Positions 316 to 17,887 are shown, numbered from the stretch's first letter. The stretch: 21,730 nt of DNA from Promethearchaeia archaeon (GCA_046497275.1 JAWOFX010000013.1:1-21730), one strand, 5' to 3'. Program-made: numbers and translations. The notes: generated by a model not told the origin, from the sequence alone.

Positions 316-1193
316 TGGAATATGCATTGTATTTAGGATGTACAATCCCTTTAAAAAATCTTAATTTTGAATATGCCTTTCGGGAAGTTAGCAAAAAACT
401 TGAAATAGATTTCAAAGAAATGCCAGGTGCTAGTTGTTGTCCCGATCCAATTGCTATTCAATCTTTAAATGTTGATACATGGTTAACTTTGGGTGCAAGG
501 AATTTAAGCATTGCTGAGAAGATGGGCTTAGATATTTTTACTGTATGTTCTGGATGTTATGAAACTTTGAAAACGGTAAATGTATTATTAGAAGAAGATG
601 AAGATGCATTTAAAAGAGTAAATAAAACTCTAAAAAAAATTGGGTATGAATATAAAGGTACTCAGAAGGTAACACATTTTGCTGAAGTGTTCAGCAGCGA
701 TGAGATGCTTGAAAAAATAAAGGAAAAAATCGTGAACCCTTTAGATGGATTGAATATCGCTGCACATTATGGATGTCATCTCATAAGACCATCTAAAATT
801 ATGCAATTTGACGATCCAGAACGACCTGAAACATTAGATAAGATTTTAGAAGTTCTTGGGGCAAACACTTTAAATTTTTCTACGAAATTAGAGTGTTGCG
901 GCTATTGTGCCAGATTAAACGAAGAAATTGGATTTGATCTCGTAGAACAAAAAATGGAAGATTTAGCTCATCTTGATACGGATGTTGATGCTTTAGTTGC
1001 TGTGTGCCCTGCTTGTGTCAATCAATACGACAGAAAAGAAAGACGATTGCAAAGGGATTTTGAAGAACTCGATATCCCAGTACTTTATTTACCAGAATTA
1101 ATGGCTGTTGCGTTTGGTATTGATATAGACACACTTGACTTTAAGAGACATGCGATAAAACCAGATAAATTGATTGAAAAATTAAAAGCATGA
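315..1193 (+). CDS. hdrB: Heterodisulfide reductase subunit B (two CCG domains)
   Basis: YLGCTIP, SCCPDP, CSGCY, HYGCH, ECCG and VCPAC supply all ten Cys of the two non-cubane [4Fe-4S] sites. 292 aa, translationally coupled to hdrC. Confidence 0.93.
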   Translation: MEYALYLGCTIPLKNLNFEYAFREVSKKLEIDFKEMPGASCCPDPIAIQSLNVDTWLTLGARNLSIAEKMGLDIFTVCSGCYETLKTVNVLLEEDEDAFKRVNKTLKKIGYEYKGTQKVTHFAEVFSSDEMLEKIKEKIVNPLDGLNIAAHYGCHLIRPSKIMQFDDPERPETLDKILEVLGANTLNFSTKLECCGYCARLNEEIGFDLVEQKMEDLAHLDTDVDALVAVCPACVNQYDRKERRLQRDFEELDIPVLYLPELMAVAFGIDIDTLDFKRHAIKPDKLIEKLKA

Positions 1194-1282: not shown

Positions 1283-1978
1283 ATGATAATAACACAACAA
1301 AAAGATATTGATGAGATATATGGAATGGTAGAACCATATAATAAAATATTAATCGCTGGATGCGATGGATGTTGCCAACCACCGCGCTCTATTGAACAAG
1401 CTCGTTTACTTGGTGAATTATTAGAATTAAAAGCAAAAAGTGAAGGAAAGAAACTTGAGTGGAGAGCCATCACAGTTTTAAGACAATGTGATGATAGAAT
1501 TACCGCTACTACTGTAAGACCGTATGTAGAAGAATACGATGCAATTGTGTCTCTCGCATGCGGGTTGGGAGTAGTAATGATGAATAGGGTATTCGAGGAC
1601 ATTTTAACTTTTCCCGCGCAAGATAGTATGTTTGCAGGAGCTGAAAATGCTGGAGAGAATTATTATGCAGAATATTGTGAGGAATGTGGGGAATGTCTTC
1701 TTGCTGAAACTGGAGGGGTTTGTCCCATGGCAGGATGCGCAAAGCATCTGAGTAATGGACCGTGTGGAGGAATGGTTGATGGAATGTGTGAAGTTGGGGA
1801 CTATACTCATGAATGTGCATGGGTTAAAATCTGGGAGCGTTTGAAAAAGTTTGATAGGTTAGATCTATTTAAAAAATATCGTCCACCACGAGATTATAGA
1901 CTACGGACCTCACCAAGTTTCATTGAAATAAATAAAGAATATACCAATGAACAACCTGAACAAGAGGCGAAAGAATAA
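1283..1978 (+). CDS. metV: Methylene-tetrahydrofolate reductase small Fe-S subunit MetV (copy 1)
   Basis: MIITQQKD start (ATG 1283, preferred over the track's 1253), RQCD, LACGLG and the Cys-rich CEECGECLLAETGGVCPMAGCAKHLSNGPCGG...CEV...ECAW of the MTHFR C-terminal-like domain. Directly upstream of metF. Confidence 0.88.
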   Translation: MIITQQKDIDEIYGMVEPYNKILIAGCDGCCQPPRSIEQARLLGELLELKAKSEGKKLEWRAITVLRQCDDRITATTVRPYVEEYDAIVSLACGLGVVMMNRVFEDILTFPAQDSMFAGAENAGENYYAEYCEECGECLLAETGGVCPMAGCAKHLSNGPCGGMVDGMCEVGDYTHECAWVKIWERLKKFDRLDLFKKYRPPRDYRLRTSPSFIEINKEYTNEQPEQEAKE

Positions 1979-1979
1979 A

Positions 1980-2933
1980 ATGGGAAATCGACCAGCTTAT
2001 AGTAATTTATGTAAGAAAATTGAGGAAGGACATTTTGTATTTACTGGAGAACTCGAGCCTAAAAAGATCTTGGATCTTGAAGAAATCATCGAATCTGCCA
2101 AAATTATGAGAGAAACCAAAAAGATCGCAGCGGCAAATGTTACAGATGGCCCCCAAGGAGACGCATATATGTGTTCAATGGTACCAAGCTATAAAGTTCA
2201 AGAGGAAGCGGGTATTGAGGCAGTATGGCAAGTGACAGTTCGTGATAGAAATCGTGTCGCTCTTTTCGCTGATGTTTTAGGAGCGGCAGTGATGGGACTT
2301 AAAAATATACTAGTTTTAACTGGTGATCACACTGCTTTAGGAGATCATAAGAGAGGAAGAGCTGTATATGACCTTGATAGCACCCAGTTTTGTGATATGC
2401 TTGGTAAGATGATTGACGAAGGTACAGACCTCAATGGTAATGAACTCAAAGGTGGAAAAATTGAGATGAATTATGGATGCGTTGCGAACCCAAACAGTAA
2501 TCCCAGAGAACCCGAGATCTTAAAAGTAGGTAGAAAAGTAGAGCAAGGAGTGGACTTCATTCAAACACAGACTGCATTCGATATTGATGAAGCGAAAGAA
2601 TTTCTTAAAGAATTGGAGCAATTTAATGTACCTGTTTTACTTGGAATCTTTCCGCTAAAATCCCATGGTATTGCATGGTATTTCGATAATTATATCCCTG
2701 GAGTGAGTGTTCCAAAAGACTTACTAAAATCTCTCAAAACCGCTGAAAAAGAAAATAAAGGAGACAAGCCTGCGAAATATGCTGCTATCGATAAGATTAA
2801 TATAGAATTTTTCAAGCCTTTTATCGAAGAGATCAGGAAAACAACGAAAGCAGCAGGTATTCATTGTATGGCAGTTGAATATGAACGACTTTTTGACCCT
2901 CTCCTTAAAGAGTTTGAAGAATACGCCTATTAA
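1980..2933 (+). CDS. metF: Methylenetetrahydrofolate reductase MetF (copy 1)
   Basis: TGELEP, NVTDGP, QVTVRDRN, LTGDH, ANPN, FIQTQ and GIHCM motifs of the MTHFR flavoprotein. ATG 1980 lies 1 nt after the metV stop; the track start at 1947 would overlap metV. Confidence 0.92.
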   Translation: MGNRPAYSNLCKKIEEGHFVFTGELEPKKILDLEEIIESAKIMRETKKIAAANVTDGPQGDAYMCSMVPSYKVQEEAGIEAVWQVTVRDRNRVALFADVLGAAVMGLKNILVLTGDHTALGDHKRGRAVYDLDSTQFCDMLGKMIDEGTDLNGNELKGGKIEMNYGCVANPNSNPREPEILKVGRKVEQGVDFIQTQTAFDIDEAKEFLKELEQFNVPVLLGIFPLKSHGIAWYFDNYIPGVSVPKDLLKSLKTAEKENKGDKPAKYAAIDKINIEFFKPFIEEIRKTTKAAGIHCMAVEYERLFDPLLKEFEEYAY

Positions 2934-3085
2934 AAGCAATTTAAATCAAAATATTCATCAATAATTTAATTTAAGCAAAAAAAGTCTAAAAAAAGAGTAA
3001 AAAAAATAATTTCCAAAAAATAATATAATTTTTTTTTATTATTATGTAGGCTCCAAAATATTAGAATTAAAAAAAGTGGTGTGAG

Positions 3086-3550
3086 ATGATGAAAAATTTA
3101 GATAAAAAAGATAAAATAATACTTGAAATGTTGATTGAGGATTCAAGAAGACCCTATAGAGAAATCGCAGATGAGGTGGATCTTTCTGAATCCACGGTTC
3201 GAAAGCGAGTAATAAAACTACAAGAGGATGGAGTAATAGAGAAATTTACAATTAAAGTGTGTAGAGAAGAGGAAAGATGCATTATGGCGTTCGTGACACT
3301 TATCCCAAAATCACAGGGTGAAATTAAGGAACTCCTCCGAGAGACGCAAGTATTACCAGAGTGCGAAGAGGTGTATTTTCTAGCTGGAGAATGCGGAGTT
3401 CTTCTAAAAGTAACTGTACCAGAAATAAACGAATTAGATGCATTGCTGGAATCATTTCGTGCACGAAGCGATGTGCGTAGCGTAGAACGTGTTTGCGTGG
3501 TACTAAAGCCTATAAAATCCCCCTCACCGCAGAATGGCGCAATCAGATAA
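3086..3550 (+). CDS. Lrp/AsnC family transcriptional regulator
   Basis: LDKKDKIILEMLIEDSRRPYREIADEVDLSESTVRKRVIKLQEDGVIEKFTI wHTH followed by a RAM-like domain. GGTGTGAG SD-like sequence upstream. Confidence 0.9.
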   Translation: MMKNLDKKDKIILEMLIEDSRRPYREIADEVDLSESTVRKRVIKLQEDGVIEKFTIKVCREEERCIMAFVTLIPKSQGEIKELLRETQVLPECEEVYFLAGECGVLLKVTVPEINELDALLESFRARSDVRSVERVCVVLKPIKSPSPQNGAIR

Positions 3551-3560
3551 TTTCTTTTTT
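3551..3560 (+). terminator. Oligo-T tract, candidate archaeal terminator after the Lrp gene
   Basis: TTTCTTTTTT immediately follows the stop codon; archaeal intrinsic terminators are T-rich. Confidence 0.4.
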
Positions 3561-3911
3561 ATTGAATCTGTTTATTAAAGATAATTAATTAAAGAGAATA
3601 ATATAAAATAAGCCTCACTTTGTAGTGGCTTTATTTCCTTAATGATTAAAAGTTTAATTTCAATTACATTAAAAATTCTCTTAATATAATATTAAAAATT
3701 TTTTATAGAAAATTCTCTAAATTAACTATATATTTGGAATTTTTTATAGTAAAAATCTTGGCTTTTTTATTAAAATATTCTCAGCATAGTATTTCTTATC
3801 AGAATTCCCTTCAATTAAAGAAAGAGAAAAATGCATTTATTTACCAAAAAAAAGAATATGATATAAGAAAAGAAAAATTATGAATATCTTTAAAATTTTA
3901 AAAAATCTTTT

Positions 3912-3918
3912 AGGAGGT
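3912..3918 (+). promoter_or_regulatory. Shine-Dalgarno site supporting the TTG start at 3926
   Basis: AGGAGGT 7 nt upstream of TTG 3926. Confidence 0.75.
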
Positions 3919-3925
3919 TATAATA

Positions 3926-5275
3926 TTGGATACTGTTTTTGAAGAGGCTCGAGAAACGAAAGTATTTGATAGTGTTGATGTTCTGGTCTGTGGTGGAGGT
4001 TCATCAGGAATCTTCGCAGCACTTGCAGCAGCAAAACATGGGGCCGATACTTTTTTAATTGAGCAAGAAGGGTTTCTTGGAGGTACAGCTACCTCCTACT
4101 TAGTAAATCCAATTCCCGAGATGATGGGGAAAGGTGGATTGATTCAAGAATTTATGGACCGAATGGCAGAGAATGGAGGATATATAAAACATAATCCATC
4201 CGAGGTAGAATACGATTTCTCACTTGCAAATACATATGATGTAGAGATCTTCAAATATATTGCACAAGAGATGTTAGATGAAGCTGGTGTTAAAATACTT
4301 TTGCATACACCCGCAGTAAAACCAGTGGTGGAGAAAAATGTCATAAAAGGGGTTATTTTCGAAAATAAATCTGGTAGGCAAGCAATTCTTGCGAAACGTG
4401 TTATCGACTGTACCGGTGATGGAGACATTGCCGCTCGAGCAGGGGTTCCTTATGATAAAGGAAGAAAAAAAGATGATCTTATGCCTTCAGTCTCCTTGCT
4501 TTTTCATCTTCATAATGAAAATGACCTTGATAAGTTACCTGTGACTCCATTCGGTGGTATTTTCCTTCTCAGTCCTCTCATGAAGAAAATAGCAAGGAAA
4601 GAGAAAATAGATTACAAATTACCCTACGATGTTGCTTTTCTTGTTCCTATGCCAGTGAGTCCTGGAAAACATTTGATAAACCTTGCCCATGTAAAGAATA
4701 TTGATGGAACAAATGCAGAAGATTTAACTCGTGCCCATATAATCTCGCGAAGACAAATTATGGAGGCAAAAAAAGTCCTTCGGCATCATCCATACTTTAG
4801 TTCTGCGTACGTTGCAAATACAGGAACACATATTTATGTAAGAGAAACCAGACGCATTAATGGGGAATATTATATAACTGAGGAAGATGCGCTTGGAGGA
4901 CGGCAGTTTGATGATGCAATCACCTCATGTGGGTATATGATCGATGTTCATCCCCTTGATAAAAGCGAAACGGGAAGATATGAAAATCATCCCCCATTTG
5001 ATATTCCATATAGAACTCTCGTACCTCTCAAAATCGACAATTTATTGGTCGCAGGACGTTGCATCTCCTCTGATCGAGTTGCTCAATCCGCTCTTAGAAT
5101 TGGTGGTACATGCATGAGTACTGGAGAGGCGGCAGGTACAGCGGCTACGCTCTCTATCCAAGAGAATCTAAATCCACGGGAAATTGATGGAAAAATCATT
5201 CGTAGAGCTTTAGAGGAACGTGGAGTCTTCATCAGAACCGAGAAAAACACTACTCCAGAAAAATGTATGTTTTAA
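3926..5275 (+). CDS. FAD-dependent oxidoreductase (FAD_oxidored/PF12831-like family), substrate unknown
   Basis: DVLVCGGGSSGIFAALAAAKHG...LIEQEGFLGG FAD-binding motif, IDCTGDGDIAARAG, VRETRRINGEY, FDIPYRTLVP, NLLVAGRCIS and GEAAGTAA. TTG start with a strong SD. Confidence 0.85.
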   Translation: MDTVFEEARETKVFDSVDVLVCGGGSSGIFAALAAAKHGADTFLIEQEGFLGGTATSYLVNPIPEMMGKGGLIQEFMDRMAENGGYIKHNPSEVEYDFSLANTYDVEIFKYIAQEMLDEAGVKILLHTPAVKPVVEKNVIKGVIFENKSGRQAILAKRVIDCTGDGDIAARAGVPYDKGRKKDDLMPSVSLLFHLHNENDLDKLPVTPFGGIFLLSPLMKKIARKEKIDYKLPYDVAFLVPMPVSPGKHLINLAHVKNIDGTNAEDLTRAHIISRRQIMEAKKVLRHHPYFSSAYVANTGTHIYVRETRRINGEYYITEEDALGGRQFDDAITSCGYMIDVHPLDKSETGRYENHPPFDIPYRTLVPLKIDNLLVAGRCISSDRVAQSALRIGGTCMSTGEAAGTAATLSIQENLNPREIDGKIIRRALEERGVFIRTEKNTTPEKCMF

Positions 5276-5326
5276 TTTTATAGTGAAAAAACTCATCTAT
5301 ATAAAAACGAACCAAAAAACACTATT

Positions 5327-6838
5327 ATGAAACTTAGCAGATTAAAGGTCTTAACAGGCGATGATTTAAAAGAAATTCACGAGACCACTATAGAATTATT
5401 AGAAGATGTGGGTATTAGAGTTGAAAGTGAGGAGATCAGGGTTTTACTTAAGAAATACGGTGCTCTTATTAACGAAGAAAAAAAGGGGGAATTCGTAAAA
5501 TTTCCAAGAAATTTGATCATGGAGAGTATTAAGAAAGTTCCAAAAGAATTTAGTTTATGGGGACCAGACGGCTCATATAATTTTACCATAAACACCTCAT
5601 CCACTAAATTTGGGACATTTGGCGCAGCAATTAATATATATGATCCTTCCCGTAAGAAAGAAATAAGGAAATCGAAATTAGAAGACACTATAAACCATAT
5701 AAGAGTGGTTAATGAATTAGAGAATATTGACTGTTCCCATATGGACGTGTGGCCAAGTGATGTTCCATTTACCGAACTTCATTTTCATACCTTAAGAGAA
5801 TGGGGAAGATATGCCAAAAAACCTTATGGAATGGGATGTTATGGAAGAACGGCTTCTTTAGATATGATTAAAATTGCCTCTATCATAAGTGGAAATATTG
5901 AAGAGATCCAGAAACGACCCCGTCTTTTAGGTGTTTTCAATCCCACTTCTCCATTAACTCTTCCTAAAATTTTATTAAATGGATTAGAAATATTTGCGAA
6001 ATTTGGACAACCAATAAATATTTCAGCAGCAGCGTTAGCAGGATCGAGTGCTCCAGTTACCTTAGCAGGCGTCTTAATACAAGCAAATATGGAAGTGCTC
6101 TCAGCGATTGTTATCACTCAACTTATAAATCCCGGAACTCCTGTTCTGTATGGTTCAACGAATACTATTATGGATCCATCAACAGGAAACCCTGCATATG
6201 GCTCCATAGAGATGGGGTTAATAACTATTGGAAGTGCCCAACTTACAGATTTTTATGGTATCCCCTCAAAAGGATCGGGTGCTCTTACGGAATCTAAATG
6301 CTTTGACATTCAAAATGGGTATGAACGTTTTATGACGCTCTTCTGTGCAGCAAATGCTGGTCATAATTATGTGACTTGTGCGGGAACCTATGAAACATCA
6401 TTAAGTGAAGCTTTGGAATTACTTGCTATTGATGATGAACTTATTGGAGTAATTAAGCGCGGAATGGACGGATTTCAAGTCAACGAATATACTCTCGCAA
6501 AACAAGAAATACGAGATATTGCAAATGGAATCCGAAAATCCTATTTAGGCACAAAACATTCTGTTAAGTTTACCCGTAAAGAAATCTTTAATCCTTCTCT
6601 AATTGATAGAAATCGTCGAGGGTTATGGATTAAGAATGGTCGGCAGGATATGTTTGAACGCGCACAAGAAAAAATCGAACAAATATTAAATGAATCAATC
6701 GAATCTAAGCTCACAAAAATTATTGAATCAGAGCTTAACGAGTACTACAAAATTATCTCGGACCGAAACCTGCAAGATTATAAAAAAAATGAGGGAATGG
6801 AAGATTCTGATGGAGATCTTAACATGTTAGGAGTATAA
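5327..6838 (+). CDS. mttB: Trimethylamine methyltransferase (MttB) superfamily protein, non-pyrrolysine type
   Basis: 503 aa. IHETTIELLEDVGI, SPL, AGSSAPVTLAGVLIQANMEVLSAIVITQLINPGTPVLYG, YGIPS and IDDEL...GI-type motifs. No in-frame TAG. The symbol denotes the family; the substrate is unknown. Confidence 0.88.
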   Translation: MKLSRLKVLTGDDLKEIHETTIELLEDVGIRVESEEIRVLLKKYGALINEEKKGEFVKFPRNLIMESIKKVPKEFSLWGPDGSYNFTINTSSTKFGTFGAAINIYDPSRKKEIRKSKLEDTINHIRVVNELENIDCSHMDVWPSDVPFTELHFHTLREWGRYAKKPYGMGCYGRTASLDMIKIASIISGNIEEIQKRPRLLGVFNPTSPLTLPKILLNGLEIFAKFGQPINISAAALAGSSAPVTLAGVLIQANMEVLSAIVITQLINPGTPVLYGSTNTIMDPSTGNPAYGSIEMGLITIGSAQLTDFYGIPSKGSGALTESKCFDIQNGYERFMTLFCAANAGHNYVTCAGTYETSLSEALELLAIDDELIGVIKRGMDGFQVNEYTLAKQEIRDIANGIRKSYLGTKHSVKFTRKEIFNPSLIDRNRRGLWIKNGRQDMFERAQEKIEQILNESIESKLTKIIESELNEYYKIISDRNLQDYKKNEGMEDSDGDLNMLGV

Positions 6839-6901
6839 GATAATTTCCCTCAGATTTCTTACTTTAGAAAAACTTATTAATTTCATAAGTGAAATACTAT
6901 T

Positions 6902-8245
6902 ATGAATGAAGAAGTACCTTATAATCGTTCTTACACCTTTATTTTCACATTATTTTACTTTTGCCAAGGATTTGTCCAAGGAGTACCATTCCTAGTTTGG
7001 CGACCATATATAGCTGATGTTTTAGAAGATGAATTTAGTATTGCATTATGGGGAATTGTCTATGCGATTGGGAATCTCCCGTGGGCAATAAAAATGATTG
7101 TGGGAATCTTTAATGATAAAATTGGCTCGAAAAAATATGGACGTCGATTTCCATGGATAATAAGTTTCGGGATCTTTGGGTCTATATGGTGGTTTATGAT
7201 AGCTGTTTATCTACCTATTAATGAATCAATCTATCTTTGGATGACATTATACTATTTTATGACACAACTGGGAATGGCTTTTGCCGATACTGCTTTAGAC
7301 GGGCTTATTTTGGATGTAACACCTAAAAGAAAATTAGGAAGAGTCCAAGGATATACGTGGACTGTAATGTTTTTAGGGTATGGTGTTGGTGGAATGTTGT
7401 TAACGCTTATTTTAGGATTGGAGAATCTTTATATTGTCCATATAATAACAGGAATTTTAATGGTAATTTCTTGTATTCTTCCCTACAAGATAAAAGAACC
7501 AGAACTCAAAGAAGTCCCATTAAAAGAATTTGGTAAAGATTTATTAACCTTTGCCACAAATAAAAGAAATTGGAAGGTCTATGCTTATACATTTTTAGGA
7601 GCATTCCAAGGAGTAATGTTGTTAGATTTCTTAACTTATACCATATTGATTTCCATGGGTGTGATAGAAGTTCAAGAAACAATCGCGCATATAGTTGGAG
7701 GTGGAGCTATTGAATTATTAGGTTGGAGTACACTATTCTATTTTGCAAGTGGGGTGGGTACAGTCATAGGTTCCTTAATATCTGGTAAATTTGGAGATGT
7801 AAGTAGGAAAAGAACAATATCATCCGTTTATTTGACATTTATTCCATATTGTCTTCTCTTAGTATTGCCATTTGCTTTTACAACGAATTTTTATATAGCA
7901 TTAGTTTTTGGTATTACTTTCCAAATCCTATTTGGAGGGATACAAAATGCATTAATGGTTGTCAATCAAACTATTCGTGGGGATTTGTCAAGAAATTATT
8001 ATCCAAATTTGAAGAGTACATATTTCGCACTTATAGTTTCATTAATAAATTTGGGACAAAATGTAGGAACCTTAATAGGAGCAGCTCTGTTGTCATTTCT
8101 AGTGTTATTTATAGATAACTTCTTTCTTAATGCGTTTATAATATCAGCTTTTTGCGCTCTTAGTCTATTAATTGCCTTTTTAACTTTTAGAACAATAGAT
8201 CCACTCGATTATGAGCTACAATTTGCATTGAAAAAGGATATTTAA
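6902..8245 (+). CDS. Major facilitator superfamily transporter (AmpG/BT1-like motifs)
   Basis: About 12 hydrophobic segments; LPWAIKMIVGIFNDK...GRRFPW loop motif, AFADTALDG, and GKFGD..SRKR in the second half. Confidence 0.88.
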   Translation: MNEEVPYNRSYTFIFTLFYFCQGFVQGVPFLVWRPYIADVLEDEFSIALWGIVYAIGNLPWAIKMIVGIFNDKIGSKKYGRRFPWIISFGIFGSIWWFMIAVYLPINESIYLWMTLYYFMTQLGMAFADTALDGLILDVTPKRKLGRVQGYTWTVMFLGYGVGGMLLTLILGLENLYIVHIITGILMVISCILPYKIKEPELKEVPLKEFGKDLLTFATNKRNWKVYAYTFLGAFQGVMLLDFLTYTILISMGVIEVQETIAHIVGGGAIELLGWSTLFYFASGVGTVIGSLISGKFGDVSRKRTISSVYLTFIPYCLLLVLPFAFTTNFYIALVFGITFQILFGGIQNALMVVNQTIRGDLSRNYYPNLKSTYFALIVSLINLGQNVGTLIGAALLSFLVLFIDNFFLNAFIISAFCALSLLIAFLTFRTIDPLDYELQFALKKDI

Positions 8246-8571
8246 TTAATTGAAACCATTTTTTTTTATTTTCTTTTTGTCATTGATTTTTACACACAAA
8301 ATTTCATAATATTTTTCGTATATAGATCACGAACTTATGCAATTTTGTTAATTATTAAAAAGTAAAACTTATTTCACTAAAATAATCGAATAAAACACTT
8401 AATCATATTCGACTTAAATATTAGAATTATGCCCCCTCATAAAGAGTTTAAAAAGATTGGAAATTATCCATATTTTAGAGAAAAGACCCATTCTAGTTAT
8501 AATTCGAAAGATTATTTTGAAGAAAAATATAATAAAAATTCACGACATACATTTTCTGAAATTCATCAATT

Positions 8572-9603
8572 TTAAATCGAAAATAGGATTTTATGGTCTT
8601 TATCTTCTCTAAAGATTTTATTTTGATATTCCAAATAGAATAAATGTGCTAATACCTCACTGAGGGCTAAAAAAGAATTCATATCATCTAATTCTCCAAA
8701 ATGTTTCTCTGCTATATCGAATGGAGTCATCGGGTTATTTGTAATCAATTCAGATATCTCTCTTAATCTTTGAGCATGGTGTATTTGTATTTCCTCAATT
8801 CTTTTTATCGGATCATAAATAACTTCTTGATGTGCTGGAAATATTATCTGAGGATTCAACTTTTTTATTCGCTCCAATGAATTCAAGTACAGATTCAATA
8901 TATTATGGAAATTATATTTCTTATATTTCTCTTGCAAAGCTGGATTTACGATGAAATTTCCGATGTGAGGTGTTATTTGAGAGAGGATATGGTCTCCAGA
9001 AAAAAGATACTCATTATTCTTTTCAAATAGGCATATGTGACCTAATGCATGACCGGGAGTCCAAAGAACTTGAAACTCTCCTTCCCCAATATTGATCAAA
9101 TCATTATCATGCAATATTATATCCGGAATTTCATATTTTTTCATCTGAGGCCACATTAAAAAATACCTTTCCAGTTTTTCTCCTTTTTCTTCAGGAAATC
9201 CAAATTTGGTTACATCTCTTACAACTTCTTGAGTCTGTTTTTTAAGATCGTTAAAGTTATCTTGGTTTGTCTCCCATCTCATGGTTTCATTTGTGATATC
9301 ATGCATTAAAATTTTAATCTCTGAGTTCTTACGTCTTAATTTTGGTATTAGGCCAGTATGATCCAAATGATTATGAGAAATAAAACAATGAGTTATCTGT
9401 TTTGGGGAGATTTTTAATTCTTCTAAATGTTTAAAAAATAGTTTAGGCCAGTTTCCCATATTTAGACCAGCATCAAATAAGATATAATCTGAATTTACTT
9501 TGAATAAATACACATATACAAAATTTACGGCAAAAGGAACATCAATTTTAATTTGTATTACATCATATATTCGATTGATTTCAGAATTAAACTCCAACTT
9601 CAC
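8572..9603 (-). CDS. MBL-fold metallo-hydrolase with C-terminal winged-helix-like domain
   Basis: SHNHLDHTG (HxHxDH), WTPGHALGH, FSGDHIL and FPAHQ metal ligands. C-terminal MTPFDIA...LALSEVLAHLFYL. GTG start. Confidence 0.9.
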   Translation of the reverse strand: MKLEFNSEINRIYDVIQIKIDVPFAVNFVYVYLFKVNSDYILFDAGLNMGNWPKLFFKHLEELKISPKQITHCFISHNHLDHTGLIPKLRRKNSEIKILMHDITNETMRWETNQDNFNDLKKQTQEVVRDVTKFGFPEEKGEKLERYFLMWPQMKKYEIPDIILHDNDLINIGEGEFQVLWTPGHALGHICLFEKNNEYLFSGDHILSQITPHIGNFIVNPALQEKYKKYNFHNILNLYLNSLERIKKLNPQIIFPAHQEVIYDPIKRIEEIQIHHAQRLREISELITNNPMTPFDIAEKHFGELDDMNSFLALSEVLAHLFYLEYQNKIFREDKDHKILFSI

Positions 9604-9714
9604 TTCAACTGCTCTCTACTAAGTTTCTAATTTTTCAGATTGAAAATTGTATAATTTTTTTAAGATTTAAGCAATGATTAGTCAATCAGCATAAATTATT
9701 TGGAGTAAAAACAT

Positions 9715-9999
9715 CTATTGCTCTGATTTTTTACTCTCTTCTTGGTCATCCTTAAAAAAGAGACATTTTTTCATGTCAAACTCAAGATCTCGTAGCTTAT
9801 ATTGGACCTCTTTGCTATTATAATCATGAGAAAGGATATCTACTATTGTATCCTTCAGTTTTTCAAGGTTATCTAACCCACACTGGTAAAACGCATCATT
9901 TTCTTCGAAAGTTAAGGTCAAAATCTGAGCTAATCCATCGAGTGCGCCCTTAATTTTTTCATATGCCTCCCACGCCTCTTCTTTTTCATCATCGCTCAT
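9715..9999 (-). CDS. Hypothetical acidic helical protein (94 aa)
   Basis: ATG with a GAGGA SD-like sequence upstream, protein-like composition, no overlap with other genes, co-oriented with neighbours. Confidence 0.75.
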   Translation of the reverse strand: MSDDEKEEAWEAYEKIKGALDGLAQILTLTFEENDAFYQCGLDNLEKLKDTIVDILSHDYNSKEVQYKLRDLEFDMKKCLFFKDDQEESKKSEQ

Positions 10000-10149
10000 A
10001 TTAATATCCTCAATTAACTATAAATTATTCTAAGTTAAATTTTTTCTGATTTCGATTCTAAATTAATTTCTTTAAAATCATTGTATCTTCTCAATTTGAA
10101 AATCATAGAAAATATAGAAAAGAAGGTAAAAAATACAAATTTTTATTAT

Positions 10150-10503
10150 TTAAAGAACTTCTCGTATTTTATCTGCGAGTTCCTTTGCTTCTCCACCAAC
10201 AGATTCGAGAATTCTGAACGTTTTTTCTGGATTAACTTTAAGTCCTGCATCTAATAATTTTTCTAACCCAATCCTAGTGTTTAATCGCTCATTTTTTTGT
10301 AAGTGAAAAATCACTTTCCCCAGGTCATTTTTTAAACGCCCTTCAGCAGAGTCTAAAACCACATCAAATAAGGCAGGACACACCTCTTCAAGAGTTTTAT
10401 TTCTTACATCACGGGCATAACTATAAACTTGAGTTCTTTGTTCATCAGTGAGTATTATTTCTTCTTTTTGAACACTTTTTTGATCATCCATTTTTTCCAT
10501 CAT
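10150..10503 (-). CDS. Hypothetical helical protein (117 aa)
   Basis: ATG with a GGAGTG SD-like sequence upstream, protein-like composition, fills otherwise non-coding space. Confidence 0.75.
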   Translation of the reverse strand: MMEKMDDQKSVQKEEIILTDEQRTQVYSYARDVRNKTLEEVCPALFDVVLDSAEGRLKNDLGKVIFHLQKNERLNTRIGLEKLLDAGLKVNPEKTFRILESVGGEAKELADKIREVL

Positions 10504-10996
10504 ATTTTATCACTCCATTTTTTATTTTTTAATTTTAATTTTTCTTACTATTCTTTAATTAGAATAGTTTCATATATAAATGTATTGGGCTAAGATTCTT
10601 AGCCGATCAAACTCTTTCGGGAAGTTTATTGAAAATATAACTCTTTTCGCTCATAAAATGAAGAAATTATTTGATTGTTTTCGTATGATAAAAAACGTCT
10701 TAAAACAAGTCAGAAAGTCACTTTTTATTTCCCTATAAAAAAACCATTCTTTGGAATAAGTGAGAATTTAGGATTTTCAATTCCGTTTTTGTTTGTTACT
10801 TAAAAATAAAAAAATAAATAAGTCATAAGATTGAATAAAAAATTTGGGAAAAATGATCTAAATTAAATAATATTTGCAGTATTTAATATTGTAATTGATC
10901 AAAGTTTTTTTTTTGAAAATTCTCATAGAAGACCAATAATCTTATATTGATGAGAATTATTGTGTGTAATGATACATAATTAATTGCGAAATCCTA

Positions 10997-11617
10997 TTGA
11001 AGATGGAAATAAATAATTTAGATCAATCAGTAGAGAAGGAAGGAGAGCAATTAAAGCGAAAAAGGTATCCAGAAGATACAAAAGAAAGAGAATTTGAAGG
11101 CTTTTTTAAATCCTCAATTATAGAGATTACTAATAAAGGATGTACGTCTTTATATGATAAATATTCTAAAGAATTAATCCATCATGATTCTAACAAACCT
11201 ACAGGAGTAACATTTCATATTAAAAATGTGTGGTGGAATAATAACCTCTATAAGTTAGAAATATGGTTCATAGAACCAAAAGGAAGATTTGAGTTTGTAT
11301 TACCTAACTATCTAAGATTGAGTTCTATAGTAGCTTTTGTAATTAATTATTATGATCAAAAAACTCTCTATAAATTGAAGGAATTAGTGTATTTAATTAA
11401 AAAAGAATATGAAAGATTGCCAATTTTATTGGCTTTCAATGTCGATAGTAAAGGGGAATTATCATTGGATAATCGTGATGAAATAATAGAGTATGCAATG
11501 AAGATAGGAATGAACGCTTATATTGAGATATCGGTGAAATCAGGACAAAATATCGAAGAACTATTTAAAGCATTAGTACAACTCTGTTTAAAAAAATTAA
11601 GTGGTCATTCAGATTAA
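10997..11617 (+). CDS. Rab/Ras-like small GTPase-fold protein with degenerate G1/G3/G4 motifs (possible pseudo-GTPase)
   Basis: Collinear with Rab motifs: FKSSIIEITNKGCTSL, KPTGVTFHIK, KLEIWFIEPKGRF, PILLAFNVD and YIEISVKSGQNIEELFKAL. The start may be ATG 11003 rather than TTG 10997. Confidence 0.75.
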   Translation: MKMEINNLDQSVEKEGEQLKRKRYPEDTKEREFEGFFKSSIIEITNKGCTSLYDKYSKELIHHDSNKPTGVTFHIKNVWWNNNLYKLEIWFIEPKGRFEFVLPNYLRLSSIVAFVINYYDQKTLYKLKELVYLIKKEYERLPILLAFNVDSKGELSLDNRDEIIEYAMKIGMNAYIEISVKSGQNIEELFKALVQLCLKKLSGHSD

Positions 11618-11740
11618 TAAAATCTCTCTTTCTTTGTTCATTTACTTTTTCTAAATTTTTAAAGAGTTTTTTTATTTTATTAGGTAAATTCTAATGAAAT
11701 AATTTCCTAATTATCTATTATTAATCAATCATAAAAAGGA

Positions 11741-13251
11741 ATGGAAATGAATCAAAGATTAGATAAAGATTTAAAAAAAGTAATTAAAACTGAGAAATCG
11801 CAAGCAAAACTTAGTAGCTACGTTGTAAACTACGGGAGATGGTTTTTATTCATATTACCGATAATCTTAGTCATTATAACTGTCTTGACTATCTTTTTAG
11901 TTCCTGAGCTTCCTGAAGCTACAAAATGGATTGATCAATCTATCGAATATAAAATCTTAAGCATATTATATACTATCGTTTTAGCAATCTATTTTATTAA
12001 TTCCATTATTCTAATCCTCAGTTCACGAAGAATAGATAAATCATTAGATCTTCGCTTGGATTACGAACGGAGAAAAGGACGACCATTCGACAGTTTAGAT
12101 GGATTCGAATTGCTCAGAAACAATATTGATAGAGTTTTGGCTCTAATGGATATAACAGCATTAATTTCTATCGTATCTATCATACTCTTCGCGGTGATGT
12201 TAACTCTCGGTGATGTAGCATTGAGTTTTATCGCAATGGGAACTACTTTAGTGGGCTTAGGTTTGGCTCTTCTTATAAGGAGTGTTAACTTAAATATTAC
12301 CGATGTAAATGGTCTTCAAGATTTCTTCAAGCCTCTCATCCATGGAATCTTTCTGGACAATTATTTTGCTGAGGTATTCAGCAATCATTTAGATCCCGTG
12401 TCATATTTAAGATGGGATGAATATATCCTTGGTATTAAAGATATTCTAACTCAAGAGTTTAAACAACAGATAAATCAACAGGAAAAAGGAGAACTTCCCA
12501 TAACGTTTGCTATAGAAAGAATACTCTTTCTTTACTATCTTAAATACCAGAAAGTATTAACTGAGGAACAATTCAGAAGAGAAATTAAGGAGATTATTAA
12601 TTTAGATTCTCAAGATTTTGATCTTCAGAAAGGATATCGTATCGAAGGTAAATGGGCTTTTGCAGAAAAAGATATTTATAAATTGTTTAAATTCATTAAG
12701 AAATATAATCCTGGGTTTTTTACTCTTATGGATAGACTTCAGCTTGAACTCGCGGATAACATTGAAAGAATTTCCTCTGATCCTATTTAATTCGACTCTT
12801 CTGCCCAAGAAGTAGTGTTTTTAAACACTGAACTTAATATTATGGTATTTCTCTATAATAATAGACCTGACGCAAAAGATTATCGTATAAGAGTTATCGC
12901 ACCTGGATTTGAACCAAAAAAAGTTTCACTTGATATTAATGTTGAGGGAAGGGGGTCTTTTGAAATCCCAAATCAAGATATATCTCTCGTGTCGGATGAA
13001 GGACTAGATATCACTCAAGTGCTTTCAACAATTTTAGAAAATGGTGAGCATGGCTTACTCTTGAACCTATAAAAAAGGGAGAGCAAACAATACAAATCTT
13101 CTTAGAGACTGCAGATGGACAAATAATCGAAGGAGAAACACGAACAATAAAAATAAAAAGAAATATTAAAGATTACCTTAAGAAGATATCCTCACTCGGT
13201 TCAGTAGTTAGCGGGGTCGCTGTTGCAATTTCTCGAGTATTATTATCATAA
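11741..13251 (+). pseudogene. Interrupted gene for a ~500 aa membrane protein (4 TM segments plus soluble and beta-rich domains)
   Basis: The track ORFs 11741..12790 and 12815..13072 are in the same frame, separated only by TAA 12788-12790 (SSDPI*FDSSAQEVVFLNTE). After a frameshift near 13046-13050 the reading continues AWLTLEPIKKGEQTIQIFLETADGQIIEGETRTIKIKRNIKDYLKKISSLGSVVSGVAVAISRVLLS* to 13251. Confidence 0.72.
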
Positions 13252-13573
13252 TTTTTACTAATTTTTTCTTTTAATTAATATATTAATTTCTTCATTATTA
13301 CAAATCAAATCGTTAAAAAAAAAACGGGCTGAATAATTTCTCCCACTAATCCAAATAATTAACTGTGATTATTCAAAACTATCAACATAAAAATCTCATG
13401 ATATTTATAAATATTCACACGCAAAATCTGCTGGCTCGTAAACAAAAGATAAATTTCTGAATCCATATGATATATATTTTTTATAATAATTAGCTTTTTA
13501 TAAATAAAAATTCTGTTTAGATATGACCTAAATTATTTATTCAAATATAAGGAAAATTAATTGGATTCTAATT

Positions 13574-14083
13574 TTGAAATCAGAGAATGGATGTGGAATA
13601 GGAGCTGAATTTCCCCACGCACATAAAATTGATATATTCAATATGGTGTTTTTTGGGATTTCGTGGTTAGTAGATATGAGAATCTTCCGAATGCATATTA
13701 GATACGGATTCTTTATTCTTGATATTATTAGAGTCACTAGCTTTTTAATTTTATTGACTTTTGGATTCTCCTTAATAAAAGTGTCTTGGAAAGTAATTAC
13801 TCCAGAGATTTACGAATCTGAGACCTTATTCTTGGAGGGAATATATAAATACATTAGACATCCTATGTATATGGGAATTTTAGTGATTTACTTGTCTTTA
13901 GTAATACTGAACCTATCGATAATAATGTTAGCTGCTTTGATTTTAATATTTTTAGTAATGAATATAATGGCATCCTATGAAGAACAGCATTTAATAGAAA
14001 TATTCGGTCAAGATTACAAACATTATAAAGATAAGGTGTCAAAATGGTTTCCTGTAAAGTATATTTCCAGAAATGAGATATAG
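13574..14083 (+). CDS. Isoprenylcysteine carboxyl methyltransferase / phospholipid methyltransferase family membrane protein
   Basis: GIYKYIRHPMYMG and YEEQHLIEIFGQDYKHYKDKVSKWFP are signature motifs of the ICMT/PEMT family; hydrophobic segments present. TTG start uncertain. Confidence 0.85.
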   Translation: MKSENGCGIGAEFPHAHKIDIFNMVFFGISWLVDMRIFRMHIRYGFFILDIIRVTSFLILLTFGFSLIKVSWKVITPEIYESETLFLEGIYKYIRHPMYMGILVIYLSLVILNLSIIMLAALILIFLVMNIMASYEEQHLIEIFGQDYKHYKDKVSKWFPVKYISRNEI

Positions 14084-14290
14084 GGTAATAAAACTTACCT
14101 TCGAATTATATATAAAAAATTGAATATCATATCATTTATCATTTTTAAGGCAATCTAGTATAGTTTTCTTGATCTTGTTCTCATGATAACTTTTCTTATC
14201 ATTATAAAAATTTTGATTATTAAACTATCATTCCTATCTAAAGTAAAGATCAACCTTAATTGCAATATTTAATTTTCATAATCAACATTG

Positions 14291-14320
14291 AAATCGATCA
14301 AGATCGATCATCGATTTATA
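14291..14320 (+). promoter_or_regulatory. Candidate promoter of metV2-metF2: inverted repeat AAATCGAT-N11-ATCGATTT running into a TATA-like TTTATA
   Basis: Perfect 8-bp inverted repeat at 14291-14298/14310-14317. TTTATA at 14315-14320, ending 38 nt before ATG 14359. Confidence 0.4.
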
Positions 14321-14358
14321 GAAAAAAAATAATAAAAATTATGAGGTAAAAATAACCA

Positions 14359-15030
14359 ATGGTTGTTATTACTACGGCCAAGCCTGACGAGGAAGTTTTC
14401 GAGGCACTTGAAAGATGGGATATAAAAAAAGCAGTAATTGTATCTTGTGGTGTATGTGCCGCTCTTTGTCAGACTGGTGGTACAGAAGGATTGGAAAGAT
14501 GGACGAAAAAGCTTGAGGAACATGGCATTCAAGTCACAGCGGGAATCGTAAGTGATGATGTATGTGATAATCGTGTAATGATGAAGGATTTGCGAAAAAT
14601 AGATGACGAATTAGCACAATCCGATGGCATCTTAACCTTAAGTTGTGGTCTTGGAGAACAATCTCTTATTGAAGTATTGAAAAGAAAATATCCTAAAATG
14701 CCCGTTATTATAGCAAATAATACTGAATTTATGGGTATGACCGAACGTATTGGTCGTTTTTATATGAGATGTCGAGGATGTGGAGATTGCTTATTGAATG
14801 AAACAGGTGGTATTTGTCCAATAACAACTTGTGCAAAATCCCTTATGAATGGCCCTTGTGGGGGAATGGTTGAAGGAATGTGCGAAGTTGATAATTATGA
14901 ACGAGATTGTGGATGGGTATTAATCTACAATCGATTAAAAGAAGTGGGACGACTTGATTTATTTGAAAAATTACGAGAATCCTTTGATTGGTCTGAACGC
15001 GGCCATCAAAGAGAAGTGGTATTTAGATAG
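14359..15030 (+). CDS. metV: Methylene-tetrahydrofolate reductase small Fe-S subunit MetV (copy 2)
   Basis: SCGVCAALCQTGG, DVCD, LSCGLG and CRGCGDCLLNETGGICPITTCAKSLMNGPCGG...CEV...DCGW. Directly upstream of metF. Confidence 0.9.
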   Translation: MVVITTAKPDEEVFEALERWDIKKAVIVSCGVCAALCQTGGTEGLERWTKKLEEHGIQVTAGIVSDDVCDNRVMMKDLRKIDDELAQSDGILTLSCGLGEQSLIEVLKRKYPKMPVIIANNTEFMGMTERIGRFYMRCRGCGDCLLNETGGICPITTCAKSLMNGPCGGMVEGMCEVDNYERDCGWVLIYNRLKEVGRLDLFEKLRESFDWSERGHQREVVFR

Positions 15031-15036
15031 GAGGTG
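15029..15036 (+). promoter_or_regulatory. Shine-Dalgarno site for metF copy 2
   Basis: AGGAGGTG overlapping the metV2 stop, 10 nt before ATG 15047. Confidence 0.7.
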
Positions 15037-15046
15037 TAAATAAAAA

Positions 15047-15970
15047 ATGGCATATTCAAAATTAGGAGAAATGTTAGAGAAGGGCGAGTTCATCTTGACT
15101 GGTGAACTTGAACCAGAAAAAACATGCGATCTTTCTCATACTATTCATGAAGCTGAGGAAATGGCTCCTTATGTAGTTGCGGCAAACGTTACAGACAGTC
15201 CTTTAGGAATCGTGACGATAAATTCAATGGCGGCGTCTCACATCATTCAAAAAGAAACGGGATTAGAAGTCATTTGGCAATTAACAGTTCGAGATGTGAA
15301 TAAATTAGGAATTGCTGGAATGGTTATGGGTGGACATGCTCTTGGTCTTAGAAATATTTTATCTCTTACAGGCGATCATCCCGCAATGGGAGATGTTCCA
15401 GAATCAAAACCTGTATTCGATTTAGATTCAGCAACCTTATGTAAACTTATTCGAGAAATGGTGGATGAGGGTAAAATTAATGGTCATGAGATTGAATGCC
15501 CTCCCACACTTCACGTAGGAGCTGCGGCTAACCCAAATGCTGATCCAATGGGTGCTGAGGTATTAAAAATCGGTAGAAAAGCAAAGGCTGGCGCAGAATT
15601 TATTCAAACTCAAGTAGTTTATGACTTAGATAGGACAATTGAGTTCCTTCGAGAAATAAAAAAATATAATGTGCCGGTGCTTTTAGGAATCTTTCCAATG
15701 AAGAGTTACGGGTTCGCTAAGGGTTTTGATGAGTTTGTACCAGGCGTTTCCGTTCCACCAGATATTCTAGCGAAATGGAAATCAATCAAAAAAGAAATTT
15801 CTGACAAAAAGGAACAAAAAGCAGCCTATGATCAAGCAAACTATGAATTCTTCGATCCATTTATCAAAGAATTGCGTAAAAAGGGATTGCTTGCCGGAAT
15901 TCACTGTATGGCGGTTCATTACCCCAGAATATTCCCAAAACTTCAGAAAGTAATAGATGAATCAAGTTAA
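15047..15970 (+). CDS. metF: Methylenetetrahydrofolate reductase MetF (copy 2)
   Basis: TGELEP, NVTDSP, QLTVRDVN, LTGDH, ANPN, FIQTQ and GIHCM motifs; clear paralogue of 1980..2933. Confidence 0.92.
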   Translation: MAYSKLGEMLEKGEFILTGELEPEKTCDLSHTIHEAEEMAPYVVAANVTDSPLGIVTINSMAASHIIQKETGLEVIWQLTVRDVNKLGIAGMVMGGHALGLRNILSLTGDHPAMGDVPESKPVFDLDSATLCKLIREMVDEGKINGHEIECPPTLHVGAAANPNADPMGAEVLKIGRKAKAGAEFIQTQVVYDLDRTIEFLREIKKYNVPVLLGIFPMKSYGFAKGFDEFVPGVSVPPDILAKWKSIKKEISDKKEQKAAYDQANYEFFDPFIKELRKKGLLAGIHCMAVHYPRIFPKLQKVIDESS

Positions 15971-15988
15971 ATCGAGATGTAACTCTTA

Positions 15989-16003
15989 TTTTTTTATTTT
16001 TTT
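15989..16003 (+). terminator. Oligo-T tract after metF2, candidate terminator
   Basis: TTTTTTTATTTTTTT about 19 nt after the stop codon. Confidence 0.45.
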
Positions 16004-16123
16004 ATCATTTTCCACTTCTTCTTATACCAAATGTAAATTCAGATCATATTCTAAAACGGAAAGTATCTAATTTTTTATTCCATTAGTAAAAACTTTAAAA
16101 AGTAGTAAACATCAACAAAGTGT

Positions 16124-17623
16124 ATGAAAAACTACGACTTTGTGGTAATTGGCTCTGGAGTAGGATTAAGCGTTTTGAATACAGCACTTAATCAGAATTT
16201 GGATTGTGCTCTCATAGAGAACGATAAGATAGGAGGAACATGCTTAACACGAGGATGCATTCCATCAAAAGTTCTTGTATATCCCGCAGATATCATAAGA
16301 GAAGCCCATCATGCGAAAAAAGTTGGTGTTGAATTGAAAACAAAAACTGTCGATTGGGATCTTATTTCAAAAAGAATGTGGAGTCAAATTAATGAAGGTA
16401 AAGAAATGAAGGAGGGGCTTTCTCAGGTATCTAACCTTGATTTATATCTAGGACGCGGTGAATTCACTGATGAATATGAAATGGAAGTCTTCAATAAGGA
16501 AAATGAAAGCATGGGTAACTTCAAAGCTGACAAATATCTGCTTGCATCAGGAGCCCGGTCATTGATCCCCCCGATAGAAGGACTTGAACAGGTCGGTTAC
16601 GTCACAAGTGAAACTTTTTTTGGTGAAAAATTCCCCAAAAAACCATGGAAAAGTCTTATCATAATTGGGGGAGGAATCATAGCGGCTGAATTCGCGCACA
16701 TATTTTCAGCAATGGGAACAGAAGTGGCTATTATTGAGATGTTGCCTCGATTAGTCTCAACAGAGGAACCCGAAATAAGTGAGATTTTAGAACAGAATTA
16801 TCGTCGATTTATGAATGTATTAGTGAATAAAAGAGCTATTAAAGTGAAAAAAGGGAAAACCGTTGTTTACCGTGATACAGAAACAGAAAGCGAAGATGAA
16901 ATATCTGCTGAAGAAATTTTGGTAGCAACTGGGCGAAAATCTAACGCTGATTTGCTAAAAGTGGAAAACACTGGAGTGGAAGTAGATGAGAAACAATGGA
17001 TTAAAACAGATGAATTTCTCCAGACCTCAAAGAAAAATATTTGGTGTATAGGAGATGCGAATGGAAAATATATGTTTAGACACAAGGGAAATTATGAATC
17101 GGAAATAGTCACCTACAATATTTTTGGCCCCGAAGACCAAAAACGAAGGGCAGATTATTCTGCTGTTCCGTGGGCAATTTATAGTTACCCTCAAATCGGC
17201 CATGTGGGTATGACTCAAAAAGAAGCAATTGATAACGGTCATAAAATACTCGTAGCGAAAAAGCGCTATAATTCTGTAGCGAAAGGTTTTGCGATGGGGT
17301 TAGAACAAGGAGATCCCGAGAATGGGATGGTAAAGTTGATAATCGACCAATCTTACAAGATCTTGGGTGCGAATATAATCGGTCCCGCTGCACCTGTGTT
17401 AGTCCAGCAATTTACTTATTTAATGAATTCCGGTTATAGATGTCAAGTACCTGAAGAAGAACCAGCGGATGTTATTCCAAAAGAACAGAGAGCATGTCCC
17501 GAGGCAGGTTCCTTTATGCCCGTGTATAATTCAATGGTTATTCATCCTTCTCTGAATGAGGTTGCTGGCTGGGCTATAGGAAATCTCCAACCAGTTAATA
17601 TTGAACATCATCACCATCATTGA
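16124..17623 (+). CDS. Pyridine nucleotide-disulfide oxidoreductase, class I (dihydrolipoamide dehydrogenase / mycothione reductase-like)
   Basis: GGTCLTRGCIPSK redox-active CxxxxC (C40/C45), GGGIIAAEF NAD(P)H-binding motif, ATGRK, IGD and HPSLNE His-Glu pair. C-terminal HHHHH. Confidence 0.9.
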   Translation: MKNYDFVVIGSGVGLSVLNTALNQNLDCALIENDKIGGTCLTRGCIPSKVLVYPADIIREAHHAKKVGVELKTKTVDWDLISKRMWSQINEGKEMKEGLSQVSNLDLYLGRGEFTDEYEMEVFNKENESMGNFKADKYLLASGARSLIPPIEGLEQVGYVTSETFFGEKFPKKPWKSLIIIGGGIIAAEFAHIFSAMGTEVAIIEMLPRLVSTEEPEISEILEQNYRRFMNVLVNKRAIKVKKGKTVVYRDTETESEDEISAEEILVATGRKSNADLLKVENTGVEVDEKQWIKTDEFLQTSKKNIWCIGDANGKYMFRHKGNYESEIVTYNIFGPEDQKRRADYSAVPWAIYSYPQIGHVGMTQKEAIDNGHKILVAKKRYNSVAKGFAMGLEQGDPENGMVKLIIDQSYKILGANIIGPAAPVLVQQFTYLMNSGYRCQVPEEEPADVIPKEQRACPEAGSFMPVYNSMVIHPSLNEVAGWAIGNLQPVNIEHHHHH

Positions 17624-17887
17624 TAAAATAAAATATAGCTATTTTCTTTTCTTAATCTTTTTTCATTCAAAGGTTGTACAATAGACCAATATTAGGATAT
17701 CAATAAAAATATTCAAATTAATCTAGTATATCACCTCACTCTTTTTGATGAAAATACATTTTCTAACTTTATAAAATCATATACAATTATAAACAAAATT
17801 AAACTTAAATCCTATGAAAAGAAAGAGCAAGATTTATTACCAAAAAAAACAAGATTTGTAAGATAGATATTTTAGAAATTTAATATT

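Follow-up and report, generated by a model that had tools for sequence, protein, structure and literature searches.

The window analyzed here is a 21,730-nucleotide stretch of DNA from Promethearchaeia archaeon (GCA_046497275.1, JAWOFX010000013.1:1-21730), which makes up the whole of contig C103 in a genome of 3.85 Mb that is 98.9% complete. It contains two pairs of adjacent metV and metF genes, metVF1 (positions 1283-2933) and metVF2 (14359-15970). Their products are predicted to be iron-sulfur flavoproteins of the methylenetetrahydrofolate reductase (MTHFR) type, which would interconvert methylene- and methyl-pterin. In the Wood-Ljungdahl pathway, no other step is as decisive for the energetics or as poorly understood as this conversion. 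The four reading frames are open and match Pfam families throughout, as expected from the initial annotation of the window, which had described two intact cassettes and had placed the start of metV1 at 1283, where we also find it. The genome contains no MTHFR or MetV genes beyond the two pairs.

Both MetF proteins match the Pfam MTHFR family over their full length, with bit scores of 89 for MetF1 and 112 for MetF2 at a gathering cut-off of 24 (Table 1). The start of metF1 is most likely at position 1980 (M12 of the open reading frame, ORF), because its orthologues are about 317 amino acids long. The gap between metV and metF is 1 nucleotide in copy 1 and 16 nucleotides in copy 2, and each MetV combines a C-terminal Cys-rich domain with a neighboring metF. 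The two MetF proteins are 48% identical over 309 amino acids (BLASTP, E 8e-105), close to the half identity estimated earlier by eye, and the two MetV proteins are 36% identical (BLASTP, E 7e-40). The motifs TGELEPxK, GIHCMAV, and EFFxPFIxExRK, previously noted as common to both MetFs, are seen in their BLASTP alignment. The catalytic glutamate, aspartate, and glutamine of Escherichia coli MetF are E28, D120, and Q183. The segments TGELEP, LTGDH, and IQTQ are present in both MetFs, as read from the MetF1/MetF2 alignment. Searches of the sequences in the PDB identified no solved relative of MetV2 and only distant type I MTHFRs for MetF2.

Each copy has more than 100 orthologue clusters at 82-97% identity; the pairs are therefore old, separately conserved paralogues and, in agreement with the initial annotation, not an assembly artefact. 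Close protein matches of both copies belong to metagenome-assembled genomes of Lokiarchaeota or Promethearchaeota. The distribution of the paralogues was determined in 301 Asgard genomes and in a 71-genome sample of the family of the window, f1. Among the 301 genomes, MetF2 orthologues (at least 75% identity) occur in family f1 only, and the other families have one MetVF at no more than 58% identity, or none. Within the family sample, 66 genomes have MetF2 and about 60 have MetF1; about 56 carry the two together. In 33 genomes of the two samples, metF1 and metF2 share a contig with 5-18 kb between them, and the linkage is family-wide. Ten family genomes have MetF2 only, including all four of genus g3 (89-100% complete), and four have MetF1 only. 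CdhC, the acetyl-CoA synthase (ACS) subunit, was found in 67 of the 71 genomes, including those of g3 and those with MetF1 only. Therefore, either paralogue can be the sole MTHFR beside carbon monoxide dehydrogenase/ACS (CODH/ACS).

The initial annotation had called for a phylogeny of MetF and MetV with acetogen types and Asgard homologues. In the MetF tree, all Asgard MetFs form one clade (support 100/100), in which MetF1 and MetF2 are each monophyletic (100/100). The sister of MetF1 is a group, supported at 96/91, that unites MetF2 with the MetF of genome G025 (family f20) and the single MetFs of sister family f2. Such a topology suggests that the MetF duplication is older than family f1, although an origin within the family, which the tree disfavors, was not rejected by the approximately unbiased test (p = 0.207). 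MetF2 is at most about 44% identical to anything beyond the Asgard clade. Horizontal transfer of a bacterial metVF-lpdA block was considered as the origin of copy 2 and is rejected for MetF2, because MetF2 nests in the Asgard-only clade. The trees cover the Asgard side of the proposed comparison.

The MetV tree and alignment separate two classes of MetV. The class with the motifs GCDGC and VLRQCD comprises MetV1 and the proteins of G025 (f20) and family f14, and every locus of this class with enough flanking sequence carries HdrA genes. The second class, with the motif CGxC, comprises MetV2 and the proteins of families f2, f15, f18, f21, and f11, and is referred to as the solo class. Twelve cysteines are invariant across both classes in the alignment; therefore, the two classes probably bind clusters in the same way and differ in their docking surfaces.

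Copy 1 closes a full Hdr-type operon. The end of contig C146 overlaps the first ~190 nucleotides of the window with 100% identity (tblastn) and supplies the remainder of hdrC together with a gene for an 1163-amino-acid HdrA::MvhD fusion protein. The fusion carries an MvhD (FlpD) domain at its C-terminus (residues 1023-1145), besides ferredoxin domains and two flavin/Rossmann halves. The combined gene order of C146 and the window is hdrA::mvhD-hdrC-hdrB-metV1-metF1, followed by lrp; the partial HdrC and HdrB thus precede copy 1, as the initial annotation had stated. The hdrA::mvhD-hdrC-hdrB-metVF1 operon is also present in relatives, and lrp follows metF1 in 11 of 11 family loci (L045-L054, L092), in one further relative, and in genome G136.

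The presence of metV, metF, hdrA, hdrB, hdrC, and mvhD in one gene string corresponds to the type IV MetFV-HdrCBA-MvhD enzymes of Moorella thermoacetica and Sporomusa ovata, with which the operon shares all six functions and an HdrA with two flavin/TrxR-like halves (Oppinger et al. 2021, PMC8760232). Unlike in those systems, the host is an archaeon, HdrA carries MvhD as a C-terminal fusion, an Lrp gene invariably accompanies the operon, Pfam detects no GltD/NfnB-type NAD(P)H insert, and the pterin may be tetrahydromethanopterin (H4MPT). A further difference is that the metVF1 operon of some relatives lacks hdrCB or begins with an FrhB-like gene. In L045, L046, L049, and L050 (genera g2 and g5), hdrCB is missing and metV1 comes directly after the gene for a different HdrA::MvhD (about 50% identity); an additional HdrA-like gene lies upstream in L045 and L046. 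In genus g4 (L048:12708-13850 in G144, and L047), an FrhB/FdhB-like gene heads the hdrA-hdrCB-metVF1 operon.

Copy 2 is a two-gene unit. The genes metV2 and metF2 are adjacent in 39 of the 39 family loci inspected, whereas their flanks vary and include genes for a metallo-beta-lactamase-fold protein, a radical SAM protein, clostripain, phosphoenolpyruvate carboxykinase, and an ABC permease. RNA evidence was obtained from contigs assembled from salt-lake metatranscriptomes of three studies, in runs chosen by their matches to window positions 9000-18000; contig boundaries alone were used, as a weak hint. In each of the three, one RNA contig extends over metV2-metF2 (14324-15934 or a similar span). 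A T-rich tract after the metF2 stop codon coincides with an accumulation of contig ends, joints, and loose ends at 15984-16011. Contig depths are 86-192 for metV2-metF2, 12-34 for the lpd-like gene downstream, and 0-105 for metVF1, values that cannot rank the genes. These observations hint that metV2-metF2 is a transcription unit of its own. RNA contigs also include segments of hdrB, metV1, and metF1, and therefore neither copy looks silent; a copy that is never expressed had been named as evidence against two working isoenzymes.

Both in the RNA contig, which is confined to metV2-metF2, and in the 39 loci, the unit is free of Hdr and RnfC2 genes. It thereby resembles the type II MetVFs of Clostridium ljungdahlii, C. 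formicoaceticum, Thermoanaerobacter kivui, and Eubacterium callanderi, in which the Cys pattern of MetV is also the same. It differs from them in that MetF2 belongs to the Asgard-specific clade described above, and, unlike in clostridia, no folD, fhs, or acs genes are located near copy 2.

The gene downstream of copy 2, after a gap of 153 nucleotides, encodes a class I flavoprotein disulfide reductase (Lpd), as claimed in the initial annotation, which had considered it the redox partner of MetVF2. The lpd gene follows on the same strand, as in the clostridial order metV-metF-lpdA. Unlike in clostridia, however, it is often displaced or missing and is apparently not co-transcribed, according to the RNA hints. 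In 28 genomes with both genes on one contig, the distance from metF2 to lpd is no more than 0.6 kb in 10, 1.2-2.8 kb in 10, and 4-12 kb in 8, so that lpd is directly adjacent to metF2 in 10 of 28 cases. The inserts in the other 18 include a 3-hydroxyacyl-CoA dehydrogenase-like gene and histidine kinases. They were checked for carrier or ferredoxin genes, none of which was found, and the inserted genes have no relation to one-carbon (C1) or electron-transfer functions. An Lpd orthologue is present in 53 of the 71 family genomes and was not found in 15 that have MetF2, two of which are 100%-complete g4 genomes. The terminator-like tract lies between metF2 and lpd, a TATA-like box is located about 25 nucleotides before the lpd ATG, and lpd is found on RNA contigs separate from metV2-metF2; it is probably a separate transcription unit. 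In C. ljungdahlii, LpdA, a dihydrolipoyl dehydrogenase (DLDH) encoded beside metFV, separated from MetFV and did not donate electrons to it (PMC8515935). Taken together, Lpd is a loosely syntenic and dispensable neighbor of copy 2, not a demonstrated partner or subunit, and this part of the earlier proposal is not supported.

Lpd could nevertheless be the entry point of NADH, with electrons passing from NADH through Lpd and a lipoyl carrier, such as a GcvH paralogue, to MetVF2, possibly with bifurcation to ferredoxin. Oppinger et al. 2021 presented an LpdA/GcvH model of this kind and expressed doubt about it (PMC8760232). It is compatible with the placement of lpd, which follows metF2 on the same strand in all 28 genomes that have the two on one contig, with the same gene order in clostridial and Acetobacterium Wood-Ljungdahl clusters (PMC8515935; PMC8760232), with the three GcvH-like genes of the genome, with the persistence of Lpd where GcvP is absent, and with the absence of Lpd from three of the four MetF1-only genomes. 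The interrupted synteny, the 15 MetF2 genomes in which Lpd was not found, the separate transcription signals, and the failure of C. ljungdahlii LpdA to donate electrons to MetFV make it improbable.

The Lpd sequence resembles those of dihydrolipoyl dehydrogenases and mycothione reductases in its class I fold, CxxxxC disulfide (CLTRGC), C-terminal His-Glu dyad (HPSLNE), and NADH-type acidic residue after the second Rossmann strand. Unlike dihydrolipoyl dehydrogenases, it misses every NCBIfam cut-off (best DLDH model NF004947, 512 bits against 592; TIGR01350, 297 against 408.8), contains a Cys-bearing C-terminal insert, ends in a His5 tail, and does not track GcvP. The five-histidine run is natural (17590-17623), and the insert, about 30 amino acids long, precedes the HPSLNE dyad. 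The nearest solved proteins are mycothione reductases (220 bits), whereas solved E3 enzymes score 150-160 bits. The Atlas look-alikes of Lpd are ~500-amino-acid Bacillota clusters named "DLDH family", which are a lead only as to its origin. We also considered Lpd as the L protein of glycine cleavage, since the gcvT-H-PA-PB operon of the genome is without an L protein and the genome encodes no full-length class I disulfide reductase other than Lpd. This role was rejected on the missed DLDH equivalog cut-offs and the lack of phyletic association, while for this particular genome it is possible. Among the 71 genomes, 34 have both Lpd and GcvPA, 11 have the glycine-cleavage genes only, 19 have Lpd only, and 7 have neither. 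In genus g1, Lpd is retained by five of the six further genomes sampled, and GcvPA was not found in those five.

The C1 genes of the genome include two copies of Ftr, Mtd and Mch (both cut by contig ends), two copies of CdhC, FolD, and the glycine-cleavage genes; Mer was not detected above the cut-off and Fhs was not found. Thus, H4MPT and tetrahydrofolate (THF) systems both seem to be present, and, by analogy with ANME-1 and other uncultured archaea, a MetVF would have to stand in for Mer, a substitution by MetF that was proposed by Chadwick et al. (PMC9012536). As in ANME-1, Bathyarchaeia, and Ca. Syntrophoarchaeum, an archaeal metF lies beside metV in a genome that has an H4MPT branch but no Mer, and in Ca. 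Syntrophoarchaeum MetFV is also linked to HdrA and MvhD (PMC9012536). Unlike in those archaea, two paralogous cassettes coexist here, with their linkage kept throughout the family.

This gene inventory raises the alternative that the two enzymes are specialized for different C1 carriers. One MetVF would replace Mer in the Wood-Ljungdahl pathway's H4MPT branch, and the other would serve the THF pool (FolD, glycine cleavage, and methyl groups for methionine), Lpd being the L protein beside the folate copy. The combination of H4MPT-branch genes without Mer or Fhs with FolD and a glycine-cleavage operon that lacks an L protein agrees with such a division, as does the status of Lpd as the only full-length enzyme of its class. 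However, it is weakened because genomes with MetF2 only, among them all four of g3, and the four with MetF1 only still carry CODH/ACS, and the occurrence of Lpd is independent of that of GcvPA. The single-paralogue genomes with CODH/ACS favor different electron coupling over strict carrier specialization, and we regard the carrier explanation as unlikely.

We favor the explanation that the window encodes two MetVF isoenzymes that differ in their coupling to electron carriers, copy 1 being of the Hdr type and copy 2 acting solo, with Lpd separate from both; we assign it a probability of roughly 60%. The initial annotation had likewise proposed two differently wired isoenzymes. For copy 1, this agrees with the complete Hdr operon and the MetV class found only with Hdr genes, whereas for copy 2 the proposed Lpd partner is not supported. 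MetV1 and MetF1 would form the catalytic end of an Hdr-type MTHFR composed of a double HdrA fused to MvhD, HdrC, HdrB, MetV1, and MetF1. By analogy with the type IV enzymes of Moorella and Sporomusa, MetV1 may dock MetF1 onto HdrA/MvhD, and the C1 redox step would thereby be tied to a flavin-based bifurcating or confurcating module with a second substrate. Pull-downs with the S. ovata MetV and MetF recovered HdrA, HdrB, and MvhD, and those with MetV also recovered MetF (PMC9430772). MetV2 and MetF2 would form a stand-alone type II enzyme, most likely exchanging electrons with ferredoxin-level carriers, as type II enzymes use reduced ferredoxin in vitro (PMC8515935; PMC8760232). The lpd-like gene would be a separate gene in loose synteny.

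Several points weigh against this explanation. The physiological electron donor of type II enzymes is disputed (PMC8760232), and the functions given here for Asgard MetVFs are predictions. About three independent lineages underlie the correlation between MetV class and Hdr genes, and long-branch warnings attach to the MetV tree. The MetF of G025 groups with MetF2 but adjoins hdrACB, so that Hdr linkage extends beyond the MetF1 clade. In genus g4, metV2, whose product is 46% identical to MetV2 of the window, lies 0.6-1.7 kb from hdrA in divergent orientation; the g4 arrangement is suggestive of a donor at the F420 level and of a common control region. The invariable position of lpd downstream of metF2 on the same strand also counts here, and the metVF-lpdA order of clostridia makes some functional tie possible.

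A division by direction has also to be weighed, in which the Hdr-type copy drives the endergonic oxidation of methyl groups (methylated amines, MttB) and the solo copy works reductively, or the reverse. The genes for an FAD oxidoreductase, a non-Pyl MttB-family methyltransferase, and a major facilitator superfamily (MFS) transporter after metVF1-lrp form a candidate module for the uptake and demethylation of quaternary amines or methylamines, and three more MttB paralogues are encoded on contigs C65 and C136. Furthermore, the Hdr-type MTHFR of S. ovata was proposed to be bidirectional and to support methyl oxidation on methanol (PMC9430772). However, the MttB cluster was found next to metVF1 in none of the ten family loci compared, the window contains no gene for a corrinoid protein or a methyl-pterin methyltransferase, and the RNA data are contigs that provide no link between expression and substrate. 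We therefore hold a directional division to be rather improbable.

Still less probable, and close to speculation, is that the conserved ~20-kb island (hdrA::mvhD-hdrCB-metVF1 ... metVF2 ... lpd) constitutes one redox system. In it, Lpd, as an NADH:disulfide reductase, would recycle a dithiol/disulfide carrier, such as a lipoyl-GcvH paralogue or a small thiol, that would serve the HdrB site as the second substrate or the solo MetVF as a donor. If true, this would name the missing partner of Hdr-type MTHFRs, the energetics of which are unresolved in acetogens.

Each cassette is of a known kind, type IV for copy 1 and type II for copy 2. No paper describing this pair of metVF paralogues was found in the literature searched, in which the coexistence and linkage of the two in one Lokiarchaeial family, the HdrA-MvhD fusion, and the two MetV classes appear to be undescribed. 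In metabolic models of Asgard archaea, and hence in those of the syntrophy at eukaryote origins, "MetF" appears as one box. A whole Lokiarchaeial family keeps two MetVFs side by side, differently wired if the favored explanation is correct, and the sequence class of MetV predicts association with Hdr. The enzyme pairs become concrete, expressible material for determining the use of donors (ferredoxin, NADH, F420, thiols) and pterins (THF or H4MPT), and Lpd, an attractive but unsupported partner, can be removed from metabolic reconstructions.

Table 1. Genes and sequence features of the window.
Feature	Position	Strand	Evidence or context
hdrC, 3' part (last 104 aa)	1-315	+	TIGR03290 HdrC match; 5' part on C146
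hdrB, two CCG domains	315-1193	+	PF02754, E 1.6e-24; TIGR03288, 277 bits
metV1, Hdr-associated class (GCDGC, VLRQCD)	1283-1978	+	DUF5981/MetV (PF12225), E 5e-31, ORF 1253-1978; alignment; MetV tree
metF1, MTHFR flavoprotein subunit	1980-2933 (most likely start)	+	MTHFR (PF02219), E 4e-25, ORF 1947-2933; orthologues ~317 aa, 83-96% identity
lrp, Lrp/AsnC regulator	3086-3550	+	Pfam HTH_AsnC and AsnC_trans_reg
PF12831 FAD oxidoreductase, non-Pyl MttB-family methyltransferase (503 aa, uninterrupted), MFS transporter	3926-8245	+	After metVF1-lrp
Metallo-beta-lactamase-fold gene and small ORFs	Between MFS transporter and Ras-like GTPase	-	
Ras-like GTPase	10997-11617		Gene-order list
349-aa protein, no Pfam family	11741-12790		Upstream of metV2
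PEMT/ICMT-like methyltransferase	Between 349-aa gene and metV2		Gene-order list
metV2, solo class (CGxC)	14359-15030	+	DUF5981/MetV (PF12225), E 2e-34, ORF 14359-15030; alignment; MetV tree
metF2	15047-15970	+	MTHFR (PF02219), E 5e-32, ORF 15047-15970; orthologues 75-97% identity
T-rich terminator-like tract between metF2 and lpd	15987-16012	+	Sequence reading
lpd-like class I flavoprotein disulfide reductase	16124-17623	+	Pyr_redox_2 and Pyr_redox_dim; TATA-like box ~16095-16102
Radical SAM/SPASM protein	Between lpd and Eco57I-type methylase		Gene-order list
Eco57I-type methylase	19349-21310		Downstream of lpd

Some of the neighboring genes are conserved in relatives. The 349-amino-acid protein is encoded upstream of metV2 in many family genomes, with 52-82% identity over the matched stretches; it matches no Pfam family, its Atlas model is poor, and its Atlas look-alikes are uninformative. 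The Eco57I-type methylase gene is located directly downstream of lpd, or of metF2, in several genera (L028, L044, L049-L052, and L054). Such conservation is unusual for restriction-modification genes and suggests a domesticated methyltransferase. Two genes for Ras/Arf-like small GTPases flank the island, one in the window (Table 1) and one at L013:4432-5112. One of the two GTPase genes is divergent and lies upstream of hdrA::mvhD, a position that is also kept in the relative L005.

RNA contigs from several runs interlink the sites 8258-8280, 10801-10821, 13252-13272, 15984-16011, and 19584-19646 through short A/T-rich linkers. The interlinked sites look like chimeras formed where transcripts end and could represent 3' termini.

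A second, very divergent MetF-like gene (20-26% identity) is located a few kilobases from the main metVF in L058, L073, and L074 (family f15) and in L063 and L079 (family f21). In family f15, this gene has a MetV-like gene of its own.

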